Shown here: piece by piece, positions 5,202-31,003 of the stretch
Layout of the letters: each line of letters begins with the position of its first letter
How positions within the stretch are numbered: position 1 is the stretch's first letter
DNA from: Candidatus Woesearchaeota archaeon
Lineage (GTDB): Archaea; Nanobdellota; Nanobdellia; Woesearchaeales; SKIA01
Assembly (NCBI GenBank): GCA_046704725.1
Contig: JBJKRI010000004.1
Span: forward strand, 1-64,000
Direction of reading: 5' to 3'
Length of the DNA stretch: 64,000 nucleotides
The notes under the pieces: generated by a model
The model's database searches: none
Told to the model about the DNA's origin: nothing
Seen by the model: the letters and a program-made list of their open reading frames with translations, nothing else
Translations under genes and position numbers: made by a program

Positions 5202-7034
5202 CTATTTCTCGTCCTTCTTCTCCTTGACCTTGCCCTCGACGACCTCCTCGTCATCTTCGGGCTTGTCCTCGGACTCCGTTGCTTGTTGGGCCTGCGCGGC
5301 CTGCTGGTAGAGCTCGGTGCCGGCCTCGGTGAGGAGTTTCTGCAACTCGTCTTTTTTGGCTGCCAGGTCGTCGAGGTCCTTGGGCTCCTTGGAGAGCGCC
5401 TCGCGCACCGCTTTCGCGGCCTTCTCGATCGCGTCGAGCTTGCTCTTGTCCACCTTGTCCTTGAGGTCGGAGACGAGCTTGTCCGCCTGGTAGGCGAGGG
5501 TGTCCGCCTCGTTGACGATCTGCGTCTCCTTGAGGCGCTCCTCGTCCTCTTTCGCGTGGGACTCGGCCTCGGTGCGCATCTTCTCGATCTCCTCGTCGGA
5601 GAGGTTGGAGGATGCGGTGATCTTGATGGACTGCTCCTTGCCCGTGCCCAGGTCCTTGGCGGAGACGCTCACGATGCCGTTCGCGTCGATGTCGCAGGTG
5701 ACCTCGACCTGCGGGACGCCGCGCGGAGCGGGCGGGATGCCGACGAGGTCGAAGCGGCCGAGGGTCTTGTTGCCCGCGGCCATGGGACGCTCGCCCTGCA
5801 GGACGTGGATGCTCACGGCGTGCTGGTTGTCCTGCGCGGTGCTGAAGATCTGGCTTTTTCTCGTCGGTATTGTCGTGTTGCGCTCGATGAGCTTGGTGAA
5901 GACACCGCCGAGGGTCTCGATGCCGAGCGACAACGGCGTGACGTCCAAGAGCAGGACGTCCTTGACCTCGCCGCCGAGGATACCGCCCTGGATGGCCGCT
6001 CCCAAGGCGACGGCCTCGTCCGGATTCACGCTCTTGTCGCCGTCCTTGCCGGTGATGTCCTTGACCAATCGCTGGACCGCGGGGATGCGCGTGGAGCCGC
6101 CGACGAAAATGACCTTGTTGATATCCTTCTTGTCGAGCTTGGCGTCCTTGAGCGCTTGGAGCGTGGGCTTCTTGAGCCGTTCGAGGATGCCGTCGATGAG
6201 CTTCTCGAACTCGGCTCGAGTGATTTCGCCGGTCAGGTGCTTGGGACCGTTCTTGTCGGCCGTGATGAAGGGCAGGTTGATGCTCGTCTTCTGCTTGCTG
6301 GAGAGCTCGATCTTCGCTTTCTCCGCTGCTTCCTTCAGTCGTTGGTGGGCTTGGCGGTCCTCGCGCAGGTCGATGCCGTTCTCTTTCTTGAACTGCTCTG
6401 CGAGGTGGTCGATGAGGATGTCGTCGATGTCATCGCCGCCCAATCGGTTGTCGCCGCTGGTCGCCTTGACTTCGAAGACGCCGTCGCCCAATTCCAGGAC
6501 GGAGACGTCGAAGGTGCCGCCGCCGAAGTCGAAGACGAGGACGGTGTGGTCCTCCCCCTTGTCCAGGCCGTAGGCGAGTGCTGCGGCGGTGGGTTCGTTG
6601 ATGATGCGTTCGACCTCGAGGCCGGCGATCTTGCCCGCGTCCTTGGTGGCCTGTCGCTGGCTGTCGGAGAAGTACGCTGGGACGGTGATGACCGCTTTTT
6701 CCACGCGACCGCCGAGGAAGGCCTCTGCATCGTGCTTGAGCTTGGAGAGGATCATCGCGCTGATCTCCTGGGGCGTGTATTCCTTGTCGTGGATGGTGAC
6801 GTGGTAGTCCTCGCCCATGTGGCGCTTGATGCTGCGCACGGTCTGCTCGGGATTGAGGATGGCCTGGTTGCGCGCGGCCTGGCCGACGATGCGCTCGCCG
6901 TCCTCGCTGACGGCGACGACCGAGGGTGTGGTGCGGTGCCCTTCGGCGTTGGGGATGATGGTGGGCTTTCCTCCTTCCATGACCGCTACGGCCGAGAAGG
7001 TCGTTCCGAGATCGATTCCGATGATCTTGCTCAT
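5202..7034 (-). CDS. dnaK: Hsp70 chaperone DnaK
   Basis: [41 protein letters not shown]. Confidence 0.98.
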
Positions 7035-7507
7035 GAGTGTTCCTCCGCTCCTTTCGAGAGCTTGACTTTTGCTGTGCGCAGCACGGTGTCGCCGAGACGG
7101 TACCCGGGCTGCAGCACCTCGATGATGCTGCCCTTGGGCTGCTTGGATGCTTCTGTGAGTATGGCCTCGTGCAGCGACGGGTCGAACTTCTCCACGGGGA
7201 CGCGCTCGACGCCGTGCGCTTCGAGCGTGCTCACGAGCTGTCCGAGCACGAGTTCGATGCCCTTGTAGAAGGCGTCGTGCTCTTTGGCTTGCGCGAGCGC
7301 TAATTCAAGATTGTCCACGACCTGGAGGATGTCTGCGATGACGTGCGCTGCAGCGCGTTCGCGCTCTTGCTCGCGCTGTTCTGCCGTGCGCCGGCGATAG
7401 TTCTCGTAGTCGGCCTGGACGCGCGCGAGGCTCTCGGTGAGCTCGGCGACGCGCTGGTCGTCCTCTTCGACGGGTATCTCTTCGGTGGGGGGTTTCTCGT
7501 GCGCCAT
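7031..7507 (-). CDS. grpE: Nucleotide exchange factor GrpE
   Basis: [35 protein letters not shown]; overlaps the dnaK start. Confidence 0.95.
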
Positions 7508-7515
7508 ACTCTCTT

Positions 7516-7532
7516 GTTGACTTGAAGTCAAC
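7516..7532. promoter_or_regulatory. Palindromic operator candidate GTTGACTT-G-AAGTCAAC upstream of grpE
   Basis: Perfect 8-bp inverted repeat between the minus-strand TATA (7556-7562) and the grpE ATG. Confidence 0.7.
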
Positions 7533-7588
7533 GAATACGTCGAAGAGACTGGTTATTTATATATGTTTCCAGCATGTTTATAAGCTCT

Positions 7589-7605
7589 GTCGTCCTTACA
7601 TCGAC
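7589..7605. promoter_or_regulatory. Operator candidate GTCGTCCTTACATCGAC upstream of the wHTH regulator
   Basis: 14/17 identical to the groES-upstream motif; lies between TTTATAAG (7577-7584) and ATG 7607. Confidence 0.6.
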
Positions 7606-7606
7606 C

Positions 7607-8005
7607 ATGCCCTTCGACCATATTACCGTGCGGAACCTCAATCCGCCGGGCACCCCGGACATCAACGCCGAGCTGCAATGGCTGGGAACAGTCCTCGGAC
7701 TGTTCGGCAACAGGGACAAGGACAGCAGCTGCTACAGGGTCTTCATGACCGTCGTGCGCACGGCCCCGAACGGCATGATCAGCTCGGACGAGATCGCGGC
7801 CAACTGCGAGCTCAGCAGAGGGACCGTCGTGCACCACCTCAACAAGCTGCGCGACGCGGGCATGATCTCGGCGAACGAGGAAGGATACAGCCTCACGGGA
7901 GGATCGCTGCGCGGCGCCCTCGGAGAGCTCGAGGCAGAGCTCGACCGGCTCTTCGAGCTCTCGCGCGTCATCGCCGAGGACATCGACCGCAAGCTCCGGC
8001 TCTGA
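7607..8005 (+). CDS. Winged-helix (ArsR/TrmB-like) transcriptional regulator, putative chaperone repressor
   Basis: SSDEIAANCELSRGTVVHHLNKLRDAGMI HTH; divergent from grpE. Confidence 0.8.
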   Translation: MPFDHITVRNLNPPGTPDINAELQWLGTVLGLFGNRDKDSSCYRVFMTVVRTAPNGMISSDEIAANCELSRGTVVHHLNKLRDAGMISANEEGYSLTGGSLRGALGELEAELDRLFELSRVIAEDIDRKLRL

Positions 8006-8053
8006 ATCCATAGGATTTATAAAACGTAGATTTCCGTATACCAGTATAGCGAC

Positions 8054-11000
8054 ATGGCGGTGGAGCGCGTGTGGGCCATACTCCTGCTCTTGCTAGTCCT
8101 TGCGCCCATCGTGATCGCCGACAGCTACGAGCCCGACAACACGACAGGCACGGCAAACTGGATCGCGACCAACGGCACGCCGCAGACCCACGACTTCAAC
8201 CCCGCCGGGGACGTGGACTTCGTCAAGTTCAACGCCACGCAAGGAGTGTCCTATGACATCAGCACGCAGAACATCACCCCGCAGAGCACGACAGACACCG
8301 TGCTCACGCTCTACAAGCCGAACGGCGCGCTGCTCGCCGTGGACGACGACAACCTCGAGCTCAACACGCGGAACAGCCGCGTATTGTTCCAAGCCCCGCA
8401 GAACGGGACGTACTACGCCCGCGTCAGCGAATACAGCAACGTCGCGGGAGGGCAATACAACATCAGCGTGACACGGCAAGGGACGCTCACCGTCACCAGC
8501 CAGGTGATGCCGACCGTCGCGCAAGACCACACCTTCACGGCGAACGCGAGCGTGACCTGCACGGGAGGACCATGCCCGGGCGTGACACTGATACTCGACC
8601 CGCGACGCAAGGTCGACCCGCGGGTGCCTAAACTGCTCACCACGCAAAAAAGCGTGGGCGTCATCATCATGTACGACACGAACGTGAGCCAAGCACCGAA
8701 GAAAGAATCGCTCGTTCTGCAGGCGGCCGGAACCGTGGTGCCGGTCGTGCAGCTCACCACGCTCGTCCAACGGCTCGGACTGCTTCCCAAGAGCGAGCCG
8801 CTCGACGTCGCCGCCAAAGACATCCACGCGCGATTCCCCACGCTCCACGCGATCGCCGCGCACATCGACCAACAGACATTCGAGAACCTCGTCAACGACC
8901 CGCGCGTCGAACGCATCCAGTACGACACGCCCGTGCACGCGACGGTCGACGGGAGCGTCTCGAGCATCAACGCCCCGCAAGTGTGGCAGACGAAGGTCAA
9001 CGGCACGAACATCACCGGAGCGGGCGTGACTGTCTGCGTCATCGACACGGGGATCAACTACACACACCCCGACTTCGGCAGCTGCAACGCGACCACGAAC
9101 ATCAACGACGGGAGCTGCCCGAAAGTCATCGGGGGCTATGACTTCGTCAACAACGACACCAACCCCATGGACGACGAAGGGCACGGCAGCCACGTCTCGG
9201 GAATCATCGCGAGCGAGAACACGACGTATCCCGGAGTCGCTCCGGGAGCGCGCATCGTCGCCATCAAGAGCCTCGACAGCACAGGCTCGGGGACGGCGAG
9301 CAACATCATCAGCGGACTGGAATGGTGCACGGCGAACGCGACGAAATACAACATCAGCGTGATAAGCATGAGCCTGGGAGCGACCGACGCCTTTCCCAAC
9401 AGCTGCGACGAATCAGACCCGACGATGACACAAGCCATACAGAACGCGATCAACGCGGGGATCATCGTGGACATCGCCGCGGGCAACGGCTTTTCCACGA
9501 GCCCGCAGCTCGGCATGAGTTGGCCTGCGTGCGTGCGCAACGCGACCGGTGTGGGAGCGACGGGGAACACGGGCGTCTGGAGCACGTACGGACAACGAGA
9601 CCTGTCCACCGCATTGCTCGCGCCAGGAGACAACGTGATGTCCACGAACTATCAGGGCGGGCACGTCACCAAGAGCGGCACGAGCATGGCGACGCCCATG
9701 GTATCTGGATCGGCCGCATTGCTGATTCAGCACGACCGGCTCGCGTACAACAGGACGCCCACGGTCTTCGAGCTGCGCACGCAACTGCAGGCGACGGGGA
9801 GCAACGACACGGACACCGCGTTCAGCAACCTCACACTGCCGCGCGTGGATCCCTTAGGAGGGATACAGGACAAAGGCGTCGTGCCCAACACGGTGGGCGC
9901 GCAGCCGTTCTGGACGCCGGACACGAACCCCGTCTCGTGCGGCACGCTCGCGGACGGACAGAGCTGCAACGCGAGCTGGACGGTGAACGCGAGCACGAGC
10001 AACGGAACATACGCGTTCTACGCGATCGCCACGACGGAATACGCGCGCGTGCAGAGCACGCACCAGAACGTGACGATCAATCCCGACACGACGCCGCCGA
10101 ACACGACTACCACGTTCCCGACGGGCTGGCAGAACGGCTCTGTGGTCATCACGCTCAACGCGACCGACAACGGGACGGGCGTCGCGCAGACGCACTACCG
10201 CGTGGACAACGGCAACTGGAGCACGGGGACCAGCGTGAACGTGACCGGGGACGGCAACCATACCGTCTATTACTACAGCGTCGACAACGTGGGCAACACC
10301 GAAGCGATGAAGAACGGGAGCGTCGCGATCGACACCCTGCCGCCGTACACGAACACGAGCGACAACGGTTCGTGGCACGACGCGGACTACAACATCACGT
10401 TGAACGTGACAGACAACGGGAGCGGCGTATCGTACACGACATACCGCATCGGCAACGGGACCTGGTCCAACGGCACGACCATCAACATCACGGCGGAAGG
10501 GAACACGACCTACCAGTACTACGGCGTGGACAAGCTCAACCACACCGAACAGACGCGCACGGCATACGCGCTGCTCGACAAGACCGCGCCGAACACGACC
10601 GTGAACGCTCCGAGCGGCTGGCAGAACGGCGCGGTCACCCTCACGTTCAACGCCACGGACAACCTCTCCGGGGTCGCGCAGACCTGGCACAGCATTGACG
10701 GCGCGAACGCGACGAACGGGAGCACCCTTGCCGTTTCCACTGATGGCAACCACACCGTCACGTATTGGAGCCGAGATGCGGCGGGCAACAACGAGAGCGT
10801 CAAGAACGTCAGCGTCGCTGTCGACACGACGCGTCCCGAGCTGTCGCGCCTGCGCCTGAACACGAGCGCGCCCGGGGCGGGGGAGAATATCACCTTCAGC
10901 GTGGACGCGAACGACACGACGAGCGGTCTTGCGAGCGTCACCCTCACCATCGACTCCAAGCCGGTCAGCCTCAGCGCATCCAACGGGACGTACTCGGGCG

Positions 11001-12361
11001 TGTGGAACGGGAGCGCGGGAGAGCACACCGCGATCACCACCGCCACGGACCGTGCGGGGAACAAGAACGTGACGGTCACCACCTTCGTCGTCTATCAGAA
11101 GTACGCGGAGACGGACGCGAACTTCACGAACACGACCACGATCGACGCGCTCTTCACGACGGATGCGAAGCTCTCCATACGCGTCGCCAACAACACGACC
11201 GCGAACCTCACGCTCCTCTCGAGCGCCACGACGCCAGCATTCACCAGCACCCTCTTGCGCGCCGTGCGCTACGTGGACATCAACGCGTCACCAGCGCTCG
11301 AGAACGCGCTCGACTGGGCGGTGATCACCGTCTCGTACGACCCCAACGCCCTCAACGGCACGGACGTGGACACGCTCCACCTCGAATGGTACAACACGTC
11401 GAGCAACGCCTGGGTCAATCTGTCGACGGGATCGCCGAGCTGGGTGCACAGCACAGGACGCGACACGACCAACCACCTCGTGTGGGCGAACGTCACGCAC
11501 TTCTCCACGTACGCGGTCACCGGGTCGCTGCCCACGACGACAACGACCACCACGACGTCCTCGGGCGGTGGCGGTGGTGGCGGAGGGGGTGGCGGAGGTG
11601 CCGCCGTCGCGAGCACGGACAGCGTGACGGCGAGCAGTCTGACAGCAGGAGTGCCGTACACCATCGGTGTGAGCCTGCCGAACGTCTCGGTGACGCAGCT
11701 CACCTTCACGCCGAGAACGACGAGCTTCGTCCAGACGCTCACCTTCCACACGAATACGACCGCGCCAGGCTTCCCGGGGATAATCTATCAATCCATCGGC
11801 ATCGCGCACGACCCCACATTCTCGGCCGACAATGTGCAGGTGACCTTCCAGGTCCCGGAGAGATGGATCGCATCGCACGGGGGACGCGCCCAGAGCGTCG
11901 CATTGTACCGCAAGGACAGCGGGCGGTACAGTCCCTTGTTCACCACCTACCATGGGACCGTCAATGGCACGGCGACGTACACCGCGAGCGCATCTTCCAT
12001 CAGCGACCTCGCCGTGGGCATGCCGGCACCGGCTCCCGAACCGGTGGTTGCAGTCCCGACAACACCGGTCACGAACGCCACGAACACGAGCCCGCCCCCG
12101 CAGGTCCAACAGCCAGCGGTCATCGTGACCGCGAGCCCGCCCCCGCAGCCGAGCGGCAACTCCCCGTCCGACCTGATCGTCGCCCTGCTCGCCCTGCTCG
12201 TGGGAGGGCTCGCGGCAGGACGCATCATGCTCGTCGAACGCAAGAAGCACGGACAGCACCTCACGCGCGCGTCGCCCGCGCACGTGGCCCGCCACCTGCA
12301 CGCCCGCGCAGGGGTGTGGTATCCGTGCGCGGAGCCGGAATGCCCGTACAGCAAGCCATAG
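8054..12361 (+). CDS. Large membrane-anchored S8 subtilisin-like protease (PPC-like, I9-like prodomain, S8, Ig-like repeats, PGF-pre-PGF-like, C-terminal TM)
   Basis: Signal peptide; catalytic [12 protein letters not shown] and GTSMATP; repeated D-T-x-P-x-T Ig modules; many N-x-S/T sequons. Confidence 0.92.
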
Positions 12362-12392: not shown

Positions 12393-13514
12393 ATGCCCGA
12401 TTACTACGCCGTCCTCGGCGTGGACAAGAACGCCTCGCAGGACGAGATCAAGCGCGCCTACAAGAAGAAGGCCAAGCAGTTCCATCCCGACCTGAACAAG
12501 GACGATCCCAAGGCCGAGGAACGCTTCAAGGAGGTCAACGAGGCATACAAGGTGCTCGGCGACGCGAACGCGCGCTCCCGCTACGACCAGTTCGGCCACG
12601 AGGGATTCACGCAGAACCAGCGCGCCGGCTTTGGTCAGGGATTCTCCGGCGGCGATTTCGGCTTCGGTGAGGGCTTCGGATTCGAGGACCTGTTCGGCAA
12701 TATCTTCGGCCAAGGATTCTCTGGACGGCAGCATCGACGGGGGGCGGATCTGCAGACCGAGATTGCCATCACGCTCCAGGAGGCGTACGCGGGATGCGAG
12801 CGCACCCTCGACCTGGACAAGTACGACCCGTGCGAAGCGTGCGAGGGCACGGGGGCCAAGGACGGCAAGACCGAGCGCTGCGCGACCTGCCACGGGCGCG
12901 GGCGCGTCGTGCGCCAGCAACGCACGCCCTTCGGGGTCTTCCAGACCGAGACCGCGTGCCCGGCGTGCAAAGGCACCGGACAGACCGCATTGGAGACGTG
13001 CCCGACCTGCAGGGGCGAGGGGCGCGTGCGCAAGAAGAAGACGGTGACCGTCGAGGTGCCGCGCGGCGTGCACGACGGTCAGCGCATCCGCGTGCCGGGA
13101 GAGGGGGAGGCCGGTCCTGCCGGCATGCCGCCAGGAGACCTGTACCTGTTCGTGCGCGTGCGGGCGCACCCGCTGTTCACTCGCGACGGCGACGACCTGA
13201 ACTGCGAGATCCCCATCAGCTTCCCGCAGGCGGCCTTTGGCGACGATGTTGCCATTCCTACGCTTAAGGGAGAGGCGCAGCTCGAGGTGCCTTCCGGTAC
13301 CCAGAGCGGGACGCGCTTCCGCATCTCGGGGTACGGTATGCCGCGCGGGCGCGGGCACGGCGACCTGTACGTCAGGGTGCGTGTGGTCACGCCCAAGAAG
13401 CTCAGCAAGGAGCAGAAGGCAGCGCTCCAGGATTACGCCAAGACCGTCGGCATCGACGCTGCTCCCCAGAAGAGCTTCTTTGCCAAGCTCAAGGACGCGT
13501 TCGACCATGAATAA
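12393..13514 (+). CDS. dnaJ: Co-chaperone DnaJ
   Basis: J domain with HPD, G/F region, four CxxCxGxG repeats. Confidence 0.97.
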
Positions 13515-28341: not shown

Positions 28342-29076
28342 GTGGCGGGGATCATCATCACCTTCGAGGGCATCGACAGGTGCGGGAAGGGGTCGCAGAT
28401 CAAGCTCCTCAAGGAGCTGCTCGAACGCATGCACGTGACGCACGTCATCTCGCGCGAGCCGGGAGGGACGTCCTACGGCGAGGCCGCCAGGCGCATGGCG
28501 CAGGACCCCAAGTTCATCCTCCGGCTCAACGAAGCCTACAAGGACCTCGACGTGCCGCACCTGCCGACGAACGAGGACCTCGAGCCGCACGGAGAGCTCT
28601 TCACGTACCTGGTCGCGAGGAGCCTGTTCTACTCCCAACGCGTCATTCCCTTCGTGGCGAAAGGAGGAGTCTTCATCGCCGACCGCGGACCGGACAGCAG
28701 CACGGCCTACCAAGGCTACGGACTGTTCCAAAACGAGTCGGACGTGGATTTCGTGCGCCGGGCGAACGATTTCGCCACGCAGAAAGCGCGGATCGCGCGC
28801 ACCTACCTGCTCGACATCACCGTGGAGGAATCCGAAAGACGCAGCGCGGAGACCGAGTTCGGCGACGGCAAGGACCGCATCGAGCTGCGTGAGCGAGAAT
28901 TCTTCACACGCGTTCGCGACGGCTATCTCTCATTGGCGAAAGACGAGCCGGAGCGCTTTCTCGTGCTGGACGGCACGCTGAGCATCGAGGAATTGCACGC
29001 GCGGATCAAAGCGGACGTGATCGGATTGCTGCGCGAGGCAGGCATCATCCCGACCGGGCTGGAAGAAGGCATATAA
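28342..29076 (+). CDS. tmk: Thymidylate kinase
   Basis: ITFEGIDRCGKGSQ, REPGG, ADRGPDSSTAYQG. Confidence 0.92.
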   Translation: MAGIIITFEGIDRCGKGSQIKLLKELLERMHVTHVISREPGGTSYGEAARRMAQDPKFILRLNEAYKDLDVPHLPTNEDLEPHGELFTYLVARSLFYSQRVIPFVAKGGVFIADRGPDSSTAYQGYGLFQNESDVDFVRRANDFATQKARIARTYLLDITVEESERRSAETEFGDGKDRIELREREFFTRVRDGYLSLAKDEPERFLVLDGTLSIEELHARIKADVIGLLREAGIIPTGLEEGI

Positions 29077-29098
29077 ATCGGGAGGCATTCGCGCCACC

Positions 29099-29115
29099 GT
29101 CGACCTAAAATCGAC
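29099..29115. promoter_or_regulatory. Operator candidate GTCGACCTAAAATCGAC upstream of groES
   Basis: GTCGA-N7-TCGAC palindrome 28 nt after ATATAAA (29071); similar to both motifs in the grpE intergenic region. Confidence 0.65.
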
Positions 29116-29129
29116 GTGAGGTGTTGCAC

Positions 29130-29408
29130 ATGCAGATACGACCGATCGGAGAACGCGTCCTCATCCGGACGATACAGCAAGAAGAGCGCACCGCCTCGGG
29201 CATCTACCTGCCGGAGAGCGCGCGCGAAGGCAAGAAAGAAGGCATCGTCGAAGCCGTGGGAGAAAAAGACGGCAAGCCCCTCCCGCTCAAGAAAGGAGAG
29301 CGGATCCTGTACGGCGGCTACAGCGCCGACGAGTTCGAGATGGACGGCACGACATTCATCATCCTCGAGTACAAGGACCTGCTCGCGACCATCGGAGGGA
29401 CCAAATGA
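29130..29408 (+). CDS. groES: Co-chaperonin GroES
   Basis: [18 protein letters not shown]. Confidence 0.95.
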
Positions 29409-31003
29409 GCAAGCAGATCATGTTCGACGAGGGCGCGCGCCAAGCATTGCAGAAAGGCATCGACAAGGTCGCGAACGTCGTGAAAGTCACGCTGGGCCCG
29501 AGAGGACGCAACGTCATCCTCGACAAGGAAGCGAGCCCGACGGTGACGAACGACGGAGTCACCATCGCCAAGCACATCGAACTGCAGGACGGCTTCGAGA
29601 ACGTCGGCGCGAAACTCATCAAGGAGGTCGCGAGCAAGACGCAGGACCGCGCGGGAGACGGCACGACAACAGCGACGGTTCTCGCGCAGGCCATGATCGC
29701 GGAGGGCCTCAAGAACATCACCGCCGGAGCGAACCCCATCGAGGTCAAGCGCGGCATCGAAGAGGCGACCAAGCACGTCGTCCTCCAGCTGAAAGAGAAG
29801 AGCGTTCCCGTCAAGGACAAGGAACGCATCGAGCAGGTCGCAACAGTCAGCGCCAATAACGACGAGGAGATCGGCACGCTCATCGCCGAAGCGATGGAGA
29901 AGGTCGGCTCGTCCGGCGTCATCACCGTCGAGGAAGCGAAGAGCATGGAGACCTCGCTCGAGGTCGTCGAGGGCATGCAGTTCGACAAGGGCTACATGAG
30001 CCCGTACATGGCGACCGACCAGGAGAAGATGGAGGCCGTCTACGACGACCCGTACATCCTGGTGACCGACAAGAAGATCAGCACGATGAAAGAGATCGTG
30101 CCCGTCCTTGAACTATCCGCCCAGCAGGGAAAGCCGTTGTACATCATCGCCGACGACGTGGACGGAGAGGCGCTGACCACGCTGGTCCTCAACATCCTGC
30201 GCGGCGCACTCAAGGTCGTCGCCGTGAAGGCGCCGGGCTTCGGCGACGAGCGGAAAGCCTTGCTGCAAGACATCGCCGTCCTCACGGGCGCGACGGTCAT
30301 CAGCGAACAGCTCGGCGGAAAGCTCGAGAGCGTGACGGCGCACGACCTCGGACGCGCCGGGCGCGTCAAGAGCAGCAAGGAGAGCACGGTGATCATCGAG
30401 GGCAAGGGCGACGCCAAATCATTGAAGGAACGCATCGGCATGCTCAAGAACCAGATGAAGAGCGAGGAGAAGGAGTACAAGCGCGACGAGCTGCAAAAGC
30501 GCCTGGCCAAGCTCTCCGGCGGTGTCGCGGTCATCAACGTGGGCGCAGCGACGGAGACCGAGCTCAAGGAGAAGAAGATGCGCATCGACGACGCGCTCCA
30601 CGCGACGAAGGCCGCCGTGGAGGAAGGAGTCGTTCCCGGAGGGGGCATCACGCTCTTCCGCGCCGCAGCGACCCTCGAAAAGAAGAAGGGCGAGCGCGGC
30701 GTGGGCATCGCGATCGTGCGGAAAGCCTTGGAAGAGCCTCTGAGACAGATCGCGCACAACGCGGGCGTCGAGCCCGCGGAAGTCGTCGCCAAGCTGCGCG
30801 AGCACAAGGACGCGTACGGCTACAACGCACGGACAGGGGTCTATGAGGACCTGTACAAGGCCGGCGTCATAGACCCCACGAAGGTCGTTCGCAACGCCTT
30901 GCAGAGCGCGTCGAGCATCGCGGCGATGCTCCTCACCACGGAGAGCGTCGTGACGGATTTCGACGACGAGAAGGACAAGGGCAGCCCCGCGATCATCATC
31001 TGA
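29405..31003 (+). CDS. groEL: Group I chaperonin GroEL
   Basis: [35 protein letters not shown]; no GGM tail. Confidence 0.97.

Follow-up and report, generated by a model that had tools for sequence, protein, structure and literature searches.

A palindromic operator and a winged-helix protein as a candidate repressor system for bacterial-type chaperone genes in a woesearchaeal archaeon

The first 64,000 nucleotides (nt) of contig JBJKRI010000004.1 of a Candidatus Woesearchaeota archaeon, in the following called the window, contain the bacterial-type chaperone operons grpE-dnaK and groES-groEL, each preceded by a copy of a 17-base-pair (bp) palindrome, and a gene for a small winged-helix protein (7607-8005, product P0001) that is divergent from grpE-dnaK. 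From the conservation of the palindrome in related genomes and from a model of the protein we consider it likely that the palindrome, GTTGAYTTWAARTCAAC, is the operator of a dimeric winged-helix repressor of chaperone genes and that the repressor is encoded by this gene. Our best reading is an undescribed archaeal regulator-operator pair for chaperone genes, as defined by comparative genomics. The genome, labelled G000 here, has a size of 1.18 Mb in 8 contigs, 60.5% G+C and a completeness of 99.7%, and the window is the start of its contig 4. In G000 the regulon probably consists of grpE-dnaK, groES-groEL, a gene for a Cdc48/VAT-type AAA ATPase on contig 8 (C8) and the regulator's own gene. 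As predicted from the position of the sites, the regulon of relatives adds hsp20 and, rarely, the thermosome.

The palindrome at the chaperone promoters of G000

A preliminary description of the window, made from its letters only, had pointed to three related 17-mers in front of grpE (operator O1), the regulator gene (second operator O2) and groES (operator O3). Their positions were correct, and so were the identities (the groES copy matches the regulator copy at 14/17 and the grpE copy at 12/17 positions) and the distances of 30 nt (grpE) and 28 nt (groES) between the ATATAAA boxes and the start of the sites. The consensus proposed there, GTYGW-N7-TCRAC, was too loose. Positions 8 (T) and 10 (A), both outside the arms that served as a filter, have these bases in 60 of 62 symmetrised sites, and this conservation beyond the filter leads to the tighter consensus given above. 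The loose pattern has 8 strand matches in the window (1.9 expected), a count of 8 being obtained in one of 100 shuffled sequences, and genome-wide it is found at 13 places, several of them inside genes. The symmetric pattern GTYGA-N7-TCRAC, by comparison, is found at four places in 1.18 Mb: the promoters of grpE, groES and cdc48 (on C8) and one intragenic position.

To score the copies, a weight matrix was made of 31 orthologous sites, all of them from other genomes. With this matrix the grpE copy reaches 27.6 bits, the cdc48 copy 22.4 bits and the groES copy 18.1 bits. Three sites of at least 18.1 bits are present in G000 compared with 0.23 expected from the exact score distribution (Poisson P ~0.002), and sites as good as O1 are expected 0.0008 times per genome. 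The motif thus stands above its background, and the same holds for the 41 related genomes, where the strict pattern GTTGANNTNANNTCAAC has 52 sites compared with 3 for the reversed control. Outside grpE, cdc48, groES and the 16S rRNA gene the matrix scan found no site of at least 12 bits in G000. The next match after the top three (13.4 bits, C4:105956) lies inside this 16S rRNA gene and was rejected. An 11.3-bit match at C8:55234 coincides partly with the end of a gene and is followed 37 nt later by the next gene, an 11.2-bit match at C5:150630 is within an open reading frame (ORF) or at its start, and GTCGAGTTACGCTCGAC at C8:84349 (6.0 bits), within overlapping long ORFs, was taken as a chance match. 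At low scores a first-order Markov simulation yields more matches than the real genome, and therefore only the top three matches are informative.

The cdc48 copy, GTCGACTTCAAGTCAAC at C8:66969, is identical to the grpE copy at 16/17 positions and is located 42 nt 5' of the ATG of a gene for an 862-amino-acid (aa) Cdc48/VAT-type AAA ATPase, identified by its translation and by a 100% match in a search for cdc48. Directly upstream of cdc48, and outside the window, lies a 153-aa ORF without Pfam family (C8:66990-67451, minus strand), and the cdc48 operator is located 4 nt after its stop codon. The C-terminal 'LPPP..LP.V' tail of this ORF is visible upstream of cdc48 in many relatives, so that the two look like a conserved gene pair.

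The location of the palindrome relative to the promoter was compared in 55 non-redundant grpE promoters with a site, 53 of which have a TATA match. In 49 of these 53 promoters the TATA 8-mer and the palindrome are separated by 20-26 nt, counted from the end of the former to the first base of the latter, with a mode of 24, and the grpE ATG mostly follows 9-24 nt after the site. For groES, hsp20, thermosome and the cdc48 genes of the relatives G030 and G039 the gap between TATA box and site is 13-28 nt. In G000, O1 starts 20 nt past the grpE TATA box and overlaps the expected (unmapped) transcription start. Archaeal transcription usually starts ~22-27 nt past the TATA box, and together with the observed gap this means that the palindrome would cover roughly +1 to +20. 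This agrees with the earlier placement of the site at the expected start, and by this geometry an operator over the expected start is in the position of a repressor site.

Conservation of the site, its neighbouring genes and its co-occurrence with the regulator

Of 41 related genomes, all from the same order, 36 contain a homologue of the regulator. When one mismatch is allowed in the GTTGA/TCAAC arms, 23 of 29 relatives have a site within 400 nt upstream of the regulator gene. The 29 loci together contain 31 sites in the 11,670 nt upstream of the regulator versus 3 in the remaining 83,858 nt. A set of Woesearchaeota loci from GenBank, which partly overlaps the 29 relatives, has a site in 51 of 79 loci, and 56 sites were counted in 31,831 nt near the regulator versus 17 in 342,951 nt elsewhere. 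The gene order with grpE divergent from the regulator, which the preliminary description had proposed to follow up in other genomes, is kept in 58 of 80 GenBank loci. Six of the 17 outside sites are one conserved stretch of dnaK coding sequence, and three are perfect palindromes at grpE genes that are separated from the regulator by other genes. The dnaK stretch, GTTGATTTTACTTCAAA and close variants, resembles the operator at one mismatch (loci L109, L128, L130, L156, L168 and L172) and is therefore a source of false positives when genomes are scanned for the motif.

When all 5-mer inverted repeats with spacers of 0-12 nt are counted without bias, GTTGA-N7-TCAAC comes first, in 34 of 79 loci, and ranks 2-4 are nested parts of the same palindrome. 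Within the genus of G000, the grpE-regulator intergenic regions of five genomes can be aligned in such a way that both sites coincide. At the O2 position positions 1, 2, 8, 10 and 13-17 (GT, T, A, TC.AC) are kept in all five genomes, and in the regulator TATA box TTTA.A is invariant. G001, G003 and G004 have one-mismatch sites at -18. The second site, being in register throughout the genus, is evidence for autoregulation in G000. In G013, G018 and others a strong site is located directly on the regulator promoter.

Many genera (e.g. loci L012, L018, L022 and L024) share a back-to-back arrangement of a minus-strand TATA box, CTTTCGGAAAAAG and a plus-strand TATA box between grpE and the regulator, which corresponds to 7553-7584 of the window. 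The conserved CTTTCGGAAAAAG-like spacer consists of overlapping B recognition elements (BRE), and together with the TATA boxes it forms a conserved bidirectional promoter core.

To identify the genes next to the 52 strict sites, the flanking ORFs of 36 loci were annotated by Pfam and the remaining sites were placed by coordinates. In total 46 of the 52 flank grpE, groES, hsp20, cdc48, thermosome or the regulator, and five are intragenic or beside genes of no assigned identity. The grpE sites often have the regulator on their opposite side, and some sites flank the regulator alone. A site heads an hsp20-grpE operon in G013, G018 and G027 and an hsp20-groES-groEL operon in G035. Strict sites at cdc48 are found in G001, G003, G030 and G039, and one at the thermosome in G021. 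Upstream of groES, sites with at most one arm mismatch occur in 6 of 13 other groESL loci. The palindrome is a strongly conserved promoter element of the bacterial-type operons grpE-dnaK and groES-groEL. As a general target, cdc48 was rejected: a canonical site just upstream is present in only 3 of 30 loci (G000, G001 and G003, all of one genus), while the G010 gene has a one-mismatch site and those of G030 and G039 have perfect sites.

In the sister species G001 a perfect operator (G001:C7:12742-12758, locus L209:1543-1559) is located 8 nt before a gene with CBS and Ribosomal_S30AE domains, which resembles a hibernation factor. By its position this site may extend the regulon of G001 to ribosome hibernation. 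Some genomes have a second, distant paralogue of the regulator (25-35% identity), of which five were examined. It is divergent from an hsp20 or groES operon in G037 (L218, C1), G036 (L219, C3) and G014 (L074, C68) and is not so placed in G011 (L220, C103) and G027 (L221, C13). Among these five loci only that of G037 has an operator-like site, GTTGATTTAAGGTAGAC, with two mismatches. A GroEL-like match at G020:C54:6653-8201 (L075) contains 13 and 8 in-frame TGA codons, and this contig is probably from a TGA-recoding bacterium binned into G020 (contamination ~6%).

At an E value of up to 0.001 the regulator family comprises 2,438 protein clusters, whose names, where present, are generic. Its distribution in the phylum was determined in an even set of 301 genomes. 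The regulator is encoded in 234 of them, which belong to Woesearchaeales and also to further orders of the class Nanoarchaeia, and the strict site is present in 167, with 218 sites in total versus 16 for the reversed control. Genomes with the regulator have the site in 158 of 234 cases and genomes without it in 9 of 67, an odds ratio of 13.4 that is uncorrected for relatedness and hence overstates the independence of the cases. Two unpublished genomes, G261 and G262, are counted here; leaving them out gives 156/232 for genomes with the regulator. Coordinates also put the site next to the regulator in G059, G066, G180, G223, G257 and G264, which represent other orders of the class. Among the 36 close relatives with a regulator only G004, G020 and G036 are without a strict site, and each of them has a one-mismatch site at the expected place. 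The regulator is also inherited together with GrpE: of the 41 relatives 35 have both, 4 have neither, and one each has only one of the two. In the two discordant genomes, G007 and G017, the gene concerned is at a contig end; G017 was therefore discarded as a case of GrpE without regulator, its grpE being at the contig end and hence uninformative. In the protein atlas, clusters of small winged-helix proteins that resemble the regulator are listed for Methanobacteriota, Iainarchaeota, Thermoplasmatota and Microcaldota, and these are leads only.

The features of the two chaperone loci in the window are listed in Table 1. The distance between the regulator TATA box and the ATG implies a leaderless transcript. 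Between the regulator and dnaJ lies a gene for a 1435-aa S8 subtilase with PPC, DUF7743 and Big_13 domains (8054-12361, plus strand). dnaJ itself (12393-13514, plus strand) encodes DnaJ, DnaJ_C and CXXCXGXG domains. It has its own TATA box and no operator, so that the J-protein appears to be outside the regulon in G000.

Table 1. Promoter elements and genes of the grpE-dnaK and groES-groEL loci in the window
Feature	Position	Strand	Description
Operator O1	7516..7532	.	GTTGACTTGAAGTCAAC; perfect 8-1-8 palindrome; 8 nt 5' of grpE ATG (7507, minus strand)
Second operator O2 (weak)	7589..7605	.	GTCGTCCTTACATCGAC; between regulator TATA box and ATG (7607), one base before the ATG
Operator O3	29099..29115	.	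GTCGACCTAAAATCGAC; begins 20 nt past TATA box, ends 14 nt before groES ATG (29130)
grpE-dnaK TATA box	7553..7564	-	ATATATAAATAA on the minus strand
Regulator TATA box	7576..7584	+	GTTTATAAG; back-to-back with grpE TATA box; 22 nt 5' of regulator ATG
groES-groEL TATA box	29071..29078	+	ATATAAAT
Regulator gene	7607..8005	+	132-aa ArsR-like winged-helix protein P0001; divergent from grpE-dnaK
grpE	7031..7507	-	Pfam GrpE 4.6e-39; first gene of operon
dnaK (Hsp70)	5202..7034	-	Pfam HSP70 2.1e-240; start overlaps grpE stop by 4 nt
groES	29130-29408	+	Pfam Cpn10 8.2e-25
groEL	29405-31003	+	Pfam Cpn60_TCP1 6e-84

The candidate regulator protein and the reading of the site

P0001 matches the Pfam family HTH_5 (PF01022) with an E value of 5.3e-7 and 29.9 bits against a cut-off of 22, and no curated NCBIfam ArsR model reaches its cut-off for this protein (best 34.8 bits versus 155). 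The AlphaFold2 model has a mean predicted local distance difference test (pLDDT) of 92.3 and a predicted template modelling score (pTM) of 0.83, and consists of a helix (residues 19-29), a winged helix (37-96) and a long helix (101-129). Both the family match and the model agree with the earlier assignment as an archaeal winged helix-turn-helix regulator and specify it as ArsR-like. In an alignment of 30 family members an N-terminal segment R-I-T-I-I...K-P and the motif ELQWLG.SLGLF..RDKD.SC[FY]R.F are conserved. The recognition helix L-S-R-G-T-V-V-H-H-L is nearly invariant, with R71, T73 and H77 identical in 30/30, and it contains the pair His76-His77; Cys42 is near-invariant.

As a homodimer the protein was modelled with a score of 0.76, the best control reaching 0.00. 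Three runs agree in at least 90% of the contacts, and the partner pLDDT is at least 83. The mark of 0.76 was reached by 20 of 30 proteins whose solved structure is a pair and by 1 of 23 whose solved structure is a single chain; as ArsR-type dimers have already been solved, passing it may partly reflect likeness to known structures. In the model the interface is made up of residues 2-10 (residue 7 facing residue 7), of helix 19-30 and of the C-terminal helix, residues 99-132. The predicted dimer is symmetric and its recognition helix nearly invariant, which suits a 17-bp palindrome with invariant arms.

By fold the best match is the N-terminal domain of TrmBL2 (Z 9.3, root-mean-square deviation (rmsd) 3.4, 104 residues), and ST1889 and AbfR2 (both Z 8.9) and TrmB (Z 8.1) are also among the matches. 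Phr (2p4w_B) is at rank 33 with Z 8.0 and rmsd 3.4 over 77 residues, tied with many unrelated winged helices. Foldseek against the Protein Data Bank (PDB) gave nothing at E up to 0.001 and only generic ArsR/MarR entries. In sequence comparisons ST1889 (profile E 4e-7) and ArsR-like proteins come closest among the proteins of solved structure. A phmmer search of P0001 against all PDB chains returned 13 matches at E up to 10, with 2p4w absent, and 2p4w is also absent among the 60 listed of the 63 matches that a profile of the 30 members finds in the PDB at E up to 1.

The earlier proposal of a winged-helix repressor for these operons is supported in outline by the comparative evidence, which contradicts none of its elements. 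We infer binding of P0001 to the site and repression, with heat or unfolded protein as the signal. In the unstressed cell the regulator dimer would most likely sit on the operator. At grpE and groES it would let the TATA-binding protein (TBP) and transcription factor B (TFB) bind and keep RNA polymerase off, as described for Phr. Protein-damaging stress, with heat as the obvious candidate, would release the dimer and switch the genes on. At cdc48 the dimer may interfere with TFB/TBP or act otherwise. Candidate mechanisms for sensing the stress are chaperone titration, a thiol switch at Cys42 and thermal melting of the coiled-coil helix.

Several observations weigh against this interpretation. 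In G000 O2 has only 7.8 bits, a score for which ~22 equally good sites are expected per genome; alone it is not significant, and its support is the position conserved in the genus. In G000 the autoregulation proposed in the preliminary description would depend on this weak site. O3 deviates from the consensus in both arms (GTCGA...TCGAC). In G000 hsp20, dnaJ and thermosome are without a site, so that this is not a complete heat-shock regulon; the extra sites that had been predicted at small heat-shock protein and thermosome promoters are missing in G000, and its clpB and lon genes were not located. The cdc48 copy of G000 lies 10 nt upstream of the TATA box and abuts the BRE/TATA elements rather than covering the start, a position that an activator could occupy too. 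In 28 of the 79 GenBank loci the 400 nt next to the regulator contain no site, even when one mismatch is allowed. In the phylum sample 76 of 234 genomes with a regulator are without the strict pattern and 9 of 67 genomes without regulator have it. A search of sequencing runs with 6800-8300 listed no RNA run, and one DNA run matched 5% of the sampled words. Finally, the adjacency of the regulator gene is no proof that P0001, and not another factor, reads the site.

The location of the cdc48 site leads to the alternative that survives best, which we nevertheless regard as distinctly unlikely: the operator is real, and the protein is an activator or has a dual role, recruiting TBP/TFB from upstream of the TATA box and repressing from downstream of it. 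Archaeal regulators of the TrmBL1 type activate or repress depending on the position of their site. In its favour are the cdc48 sites of G000, G001 and G003, which lie upstream of the TATA box, next to the BRE, with 5-10 nt between site and TATA box, and the fold matches, which include TrmB and, as the best one, the TrmBL2 domain. However, these matches are tied with many other winged helices, and a protein on a site so near to the TATA box would collide with BRE-bound TFB. In 49 of 53 grpE promoters, and likewise at groES, hsp20, thermosome and the cdc48 genes of G030 and G039, the site is downstream of the TATA box over the expected start.

It is improbable, in our view, that another factor binds the palindrome and that the winged-helix gene is a co-regulated member or a passenger. 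Many genera have a single strong site, located ~60 nt upstream of the regulator TATA box, which reduces the linkage to adjacency, and in some genomes, such as G005, the site stays with grpE where the regulator lies elsewhere. Against this, site and protein co-occur in the phylum sample as given above, strong sites are located directly on the regulator promoter in G013, G018 and others, the nearly invariant recognition helix parallels the invariant arms, and the predicted symmetric dimer suits a palindrome.

That the element is instead an RNA hairpin in the 5' untranslated region of chaperone transcripts, acting as RNA thermometer or stability element, is very improbable. The grpE and groES sites are past the expected start and would hence be transcribed; the palindrome can form a 7-bp stem, and the 56-nt grpE leader folds at -13.6 kcal/mol. 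This fold is unexceptional, though (z -1.82, with 10 of 200 shuffled sequences folding as well), and the hairpin leaves the ribosome-binding site and the ATG uncovered. The cdc48 copies in the genus of G000 are upstream of the TATA box and so outside the transcript, and a comparison of 7300-7800 with Rfam gave no match at E up to 1. Of 85 sites whose outer arms are perfect, 36 cannot pair at positions 6 and 12 and 25 cannot pair at positions 7 and 11, without compensating changes. It is the sequence rather than the pairing that is conserved, which fits a pair of half-sites for a binding protein.

We give next to no credence to the idea that the three copies in G000 are alike by chance or as repeat remnants without regulatory role, for although the loose consensus is barely above chance in the window and O2 is weak, the site keeps its position and sequence at genes of related function, both across one order and in further orders of its class, and matrix scores and the site counts in relatives refute it for the grpE, groES and cdc48 copies.

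Relation to known regulators and significance

In archaea only two heat-shock transcription regulators have been identified according to a 2022 review (PMC9133787; also PMC10653856, PMC10746257), Phr of Pyrococcus furiosus and Thermococcus and HSR1 of Archaeoglobus fulgidus. Both come from hyperthermophiles, and key chaperone genes, among them those of the thermosome subunits, are outside the two regulons (PMC9133787, PMC10653856). The operators given there are CTAAC-N5-GTTAG for HSR1 and TTTA/TGGTAA/AAAA for Phr (PMC9133787).

The repressor proposed here for the chaperone genes resembles Phr and HSR1 in several ways. P0001 is a small winged-helix protein, and its putative palindromic site lies over the transcription start, as judged here from the TATA position. 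The Phr site blocks the recruitment of RNA polymerase, and the same action would apply here. The two known regulons include hsp20, an AAA+ ATPase of the VAT/Cdc48 type and the regulator's own gene; here cdc48 carries a site in G000, hsp20 carries one in the relatives G013, G018, G027 and G035 but not in G000, and the site at the regulator's own promoter is weak in G000. Unlike Phr, P0001 has 132 aa with a single C-terminal helix, whereas the 2p4w chain has 198 residues, and the PDB searches gave no sequence match between the two. The operator GTTGA-N7-TCAAC differs from those of HSR1 and Phr. In contrast to both systems the core targets are the horizontally acquired bacterial-type DnaK and GroEL systems, and the hosts are Nanoarchaeia (DPANN) and not hyperthermophilic Euryarchaeota. 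The system would work like Phr and HSR1, yet no specific relationship to them is detectable.

Similarities to the bacterial pairs HrcA/CIRCE and HspR/HAIR are a single inverted repeat at both grpE-dnaK and groES-groEL, the regulator gene beside grpE and the likely negative control. However, P0001 has no HrcA domain, and the promoters are archaeal with TATA/BRE elements. The earlier statement that the site is not that of HrcA is in agreement with this: HrcA is missing among the Pfam hits of P0001, and no HrcA domain (PF01628) was found in the nearly complete genome, while 7 of 14 control genomes match. We take the 17-bp operator to be unrelated to CIRCE or HAIR. With the ArsR/SmtB family P0001 shares the HTH_5 match above cut-off, ArsR-like proteins as nearest PDB sequences, an inverted-repeat operator and a modelled dimer formed by N- and C-terminal helices. 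It differs from this family in its own conserved N-terminal segment and the RDKDxSC[FY]R motif, and its predicted targets are chaperone genes and not metal resistance.

Bacterial DnaK-DnaJ-GrpE and GroEL/ES have been reported in Woesearchaeota/DPANN, and the excerpted report does not mention their control (PMC8204110). Our literature search found nothing linking Woesearchaeota, GrpE and a transcriptional regulator, and nothing relevant among the papers listed for heat-shock regulons in DPANN.

A more far-reaching proposal, which we hold to be unlikely, is that P0001 represents a third, independent family of archaeal heat-shock regulators that was recruited to bacterial Hsp70/Hsp60 acquired by gene transfer and that senses stress by chaperone titration. 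Free DnaK would keep the repressor dimer competent, and unfolded proteins would draw DnaK off and thereby release the regulon, so that a feedback loop of the HspR/HrcA kind would have been re-created at an archaeal promoter. The idea is based on the tight co-inheritance of the regulator with GrpE-DnaK and on the conserved hydrophobic N-terminal strand R-I-T-I-I, which is part of the interface in the predicted dimer. The near-invariant Cys42 could contribute a thiol switch in addition.

If the repressor reading of the palindrome and P0001 is true, this would be the first DPANN regulon for which an operator is defined, and it would extend over thousands of uncultivated genomes. It would show how genes derived from bacteria are wired into archaeal promoters of the TATA/TFB type, and with 132 aa and 17 bp it would offer a compact protein-DNA pair that is testable in vitro without cultivation.

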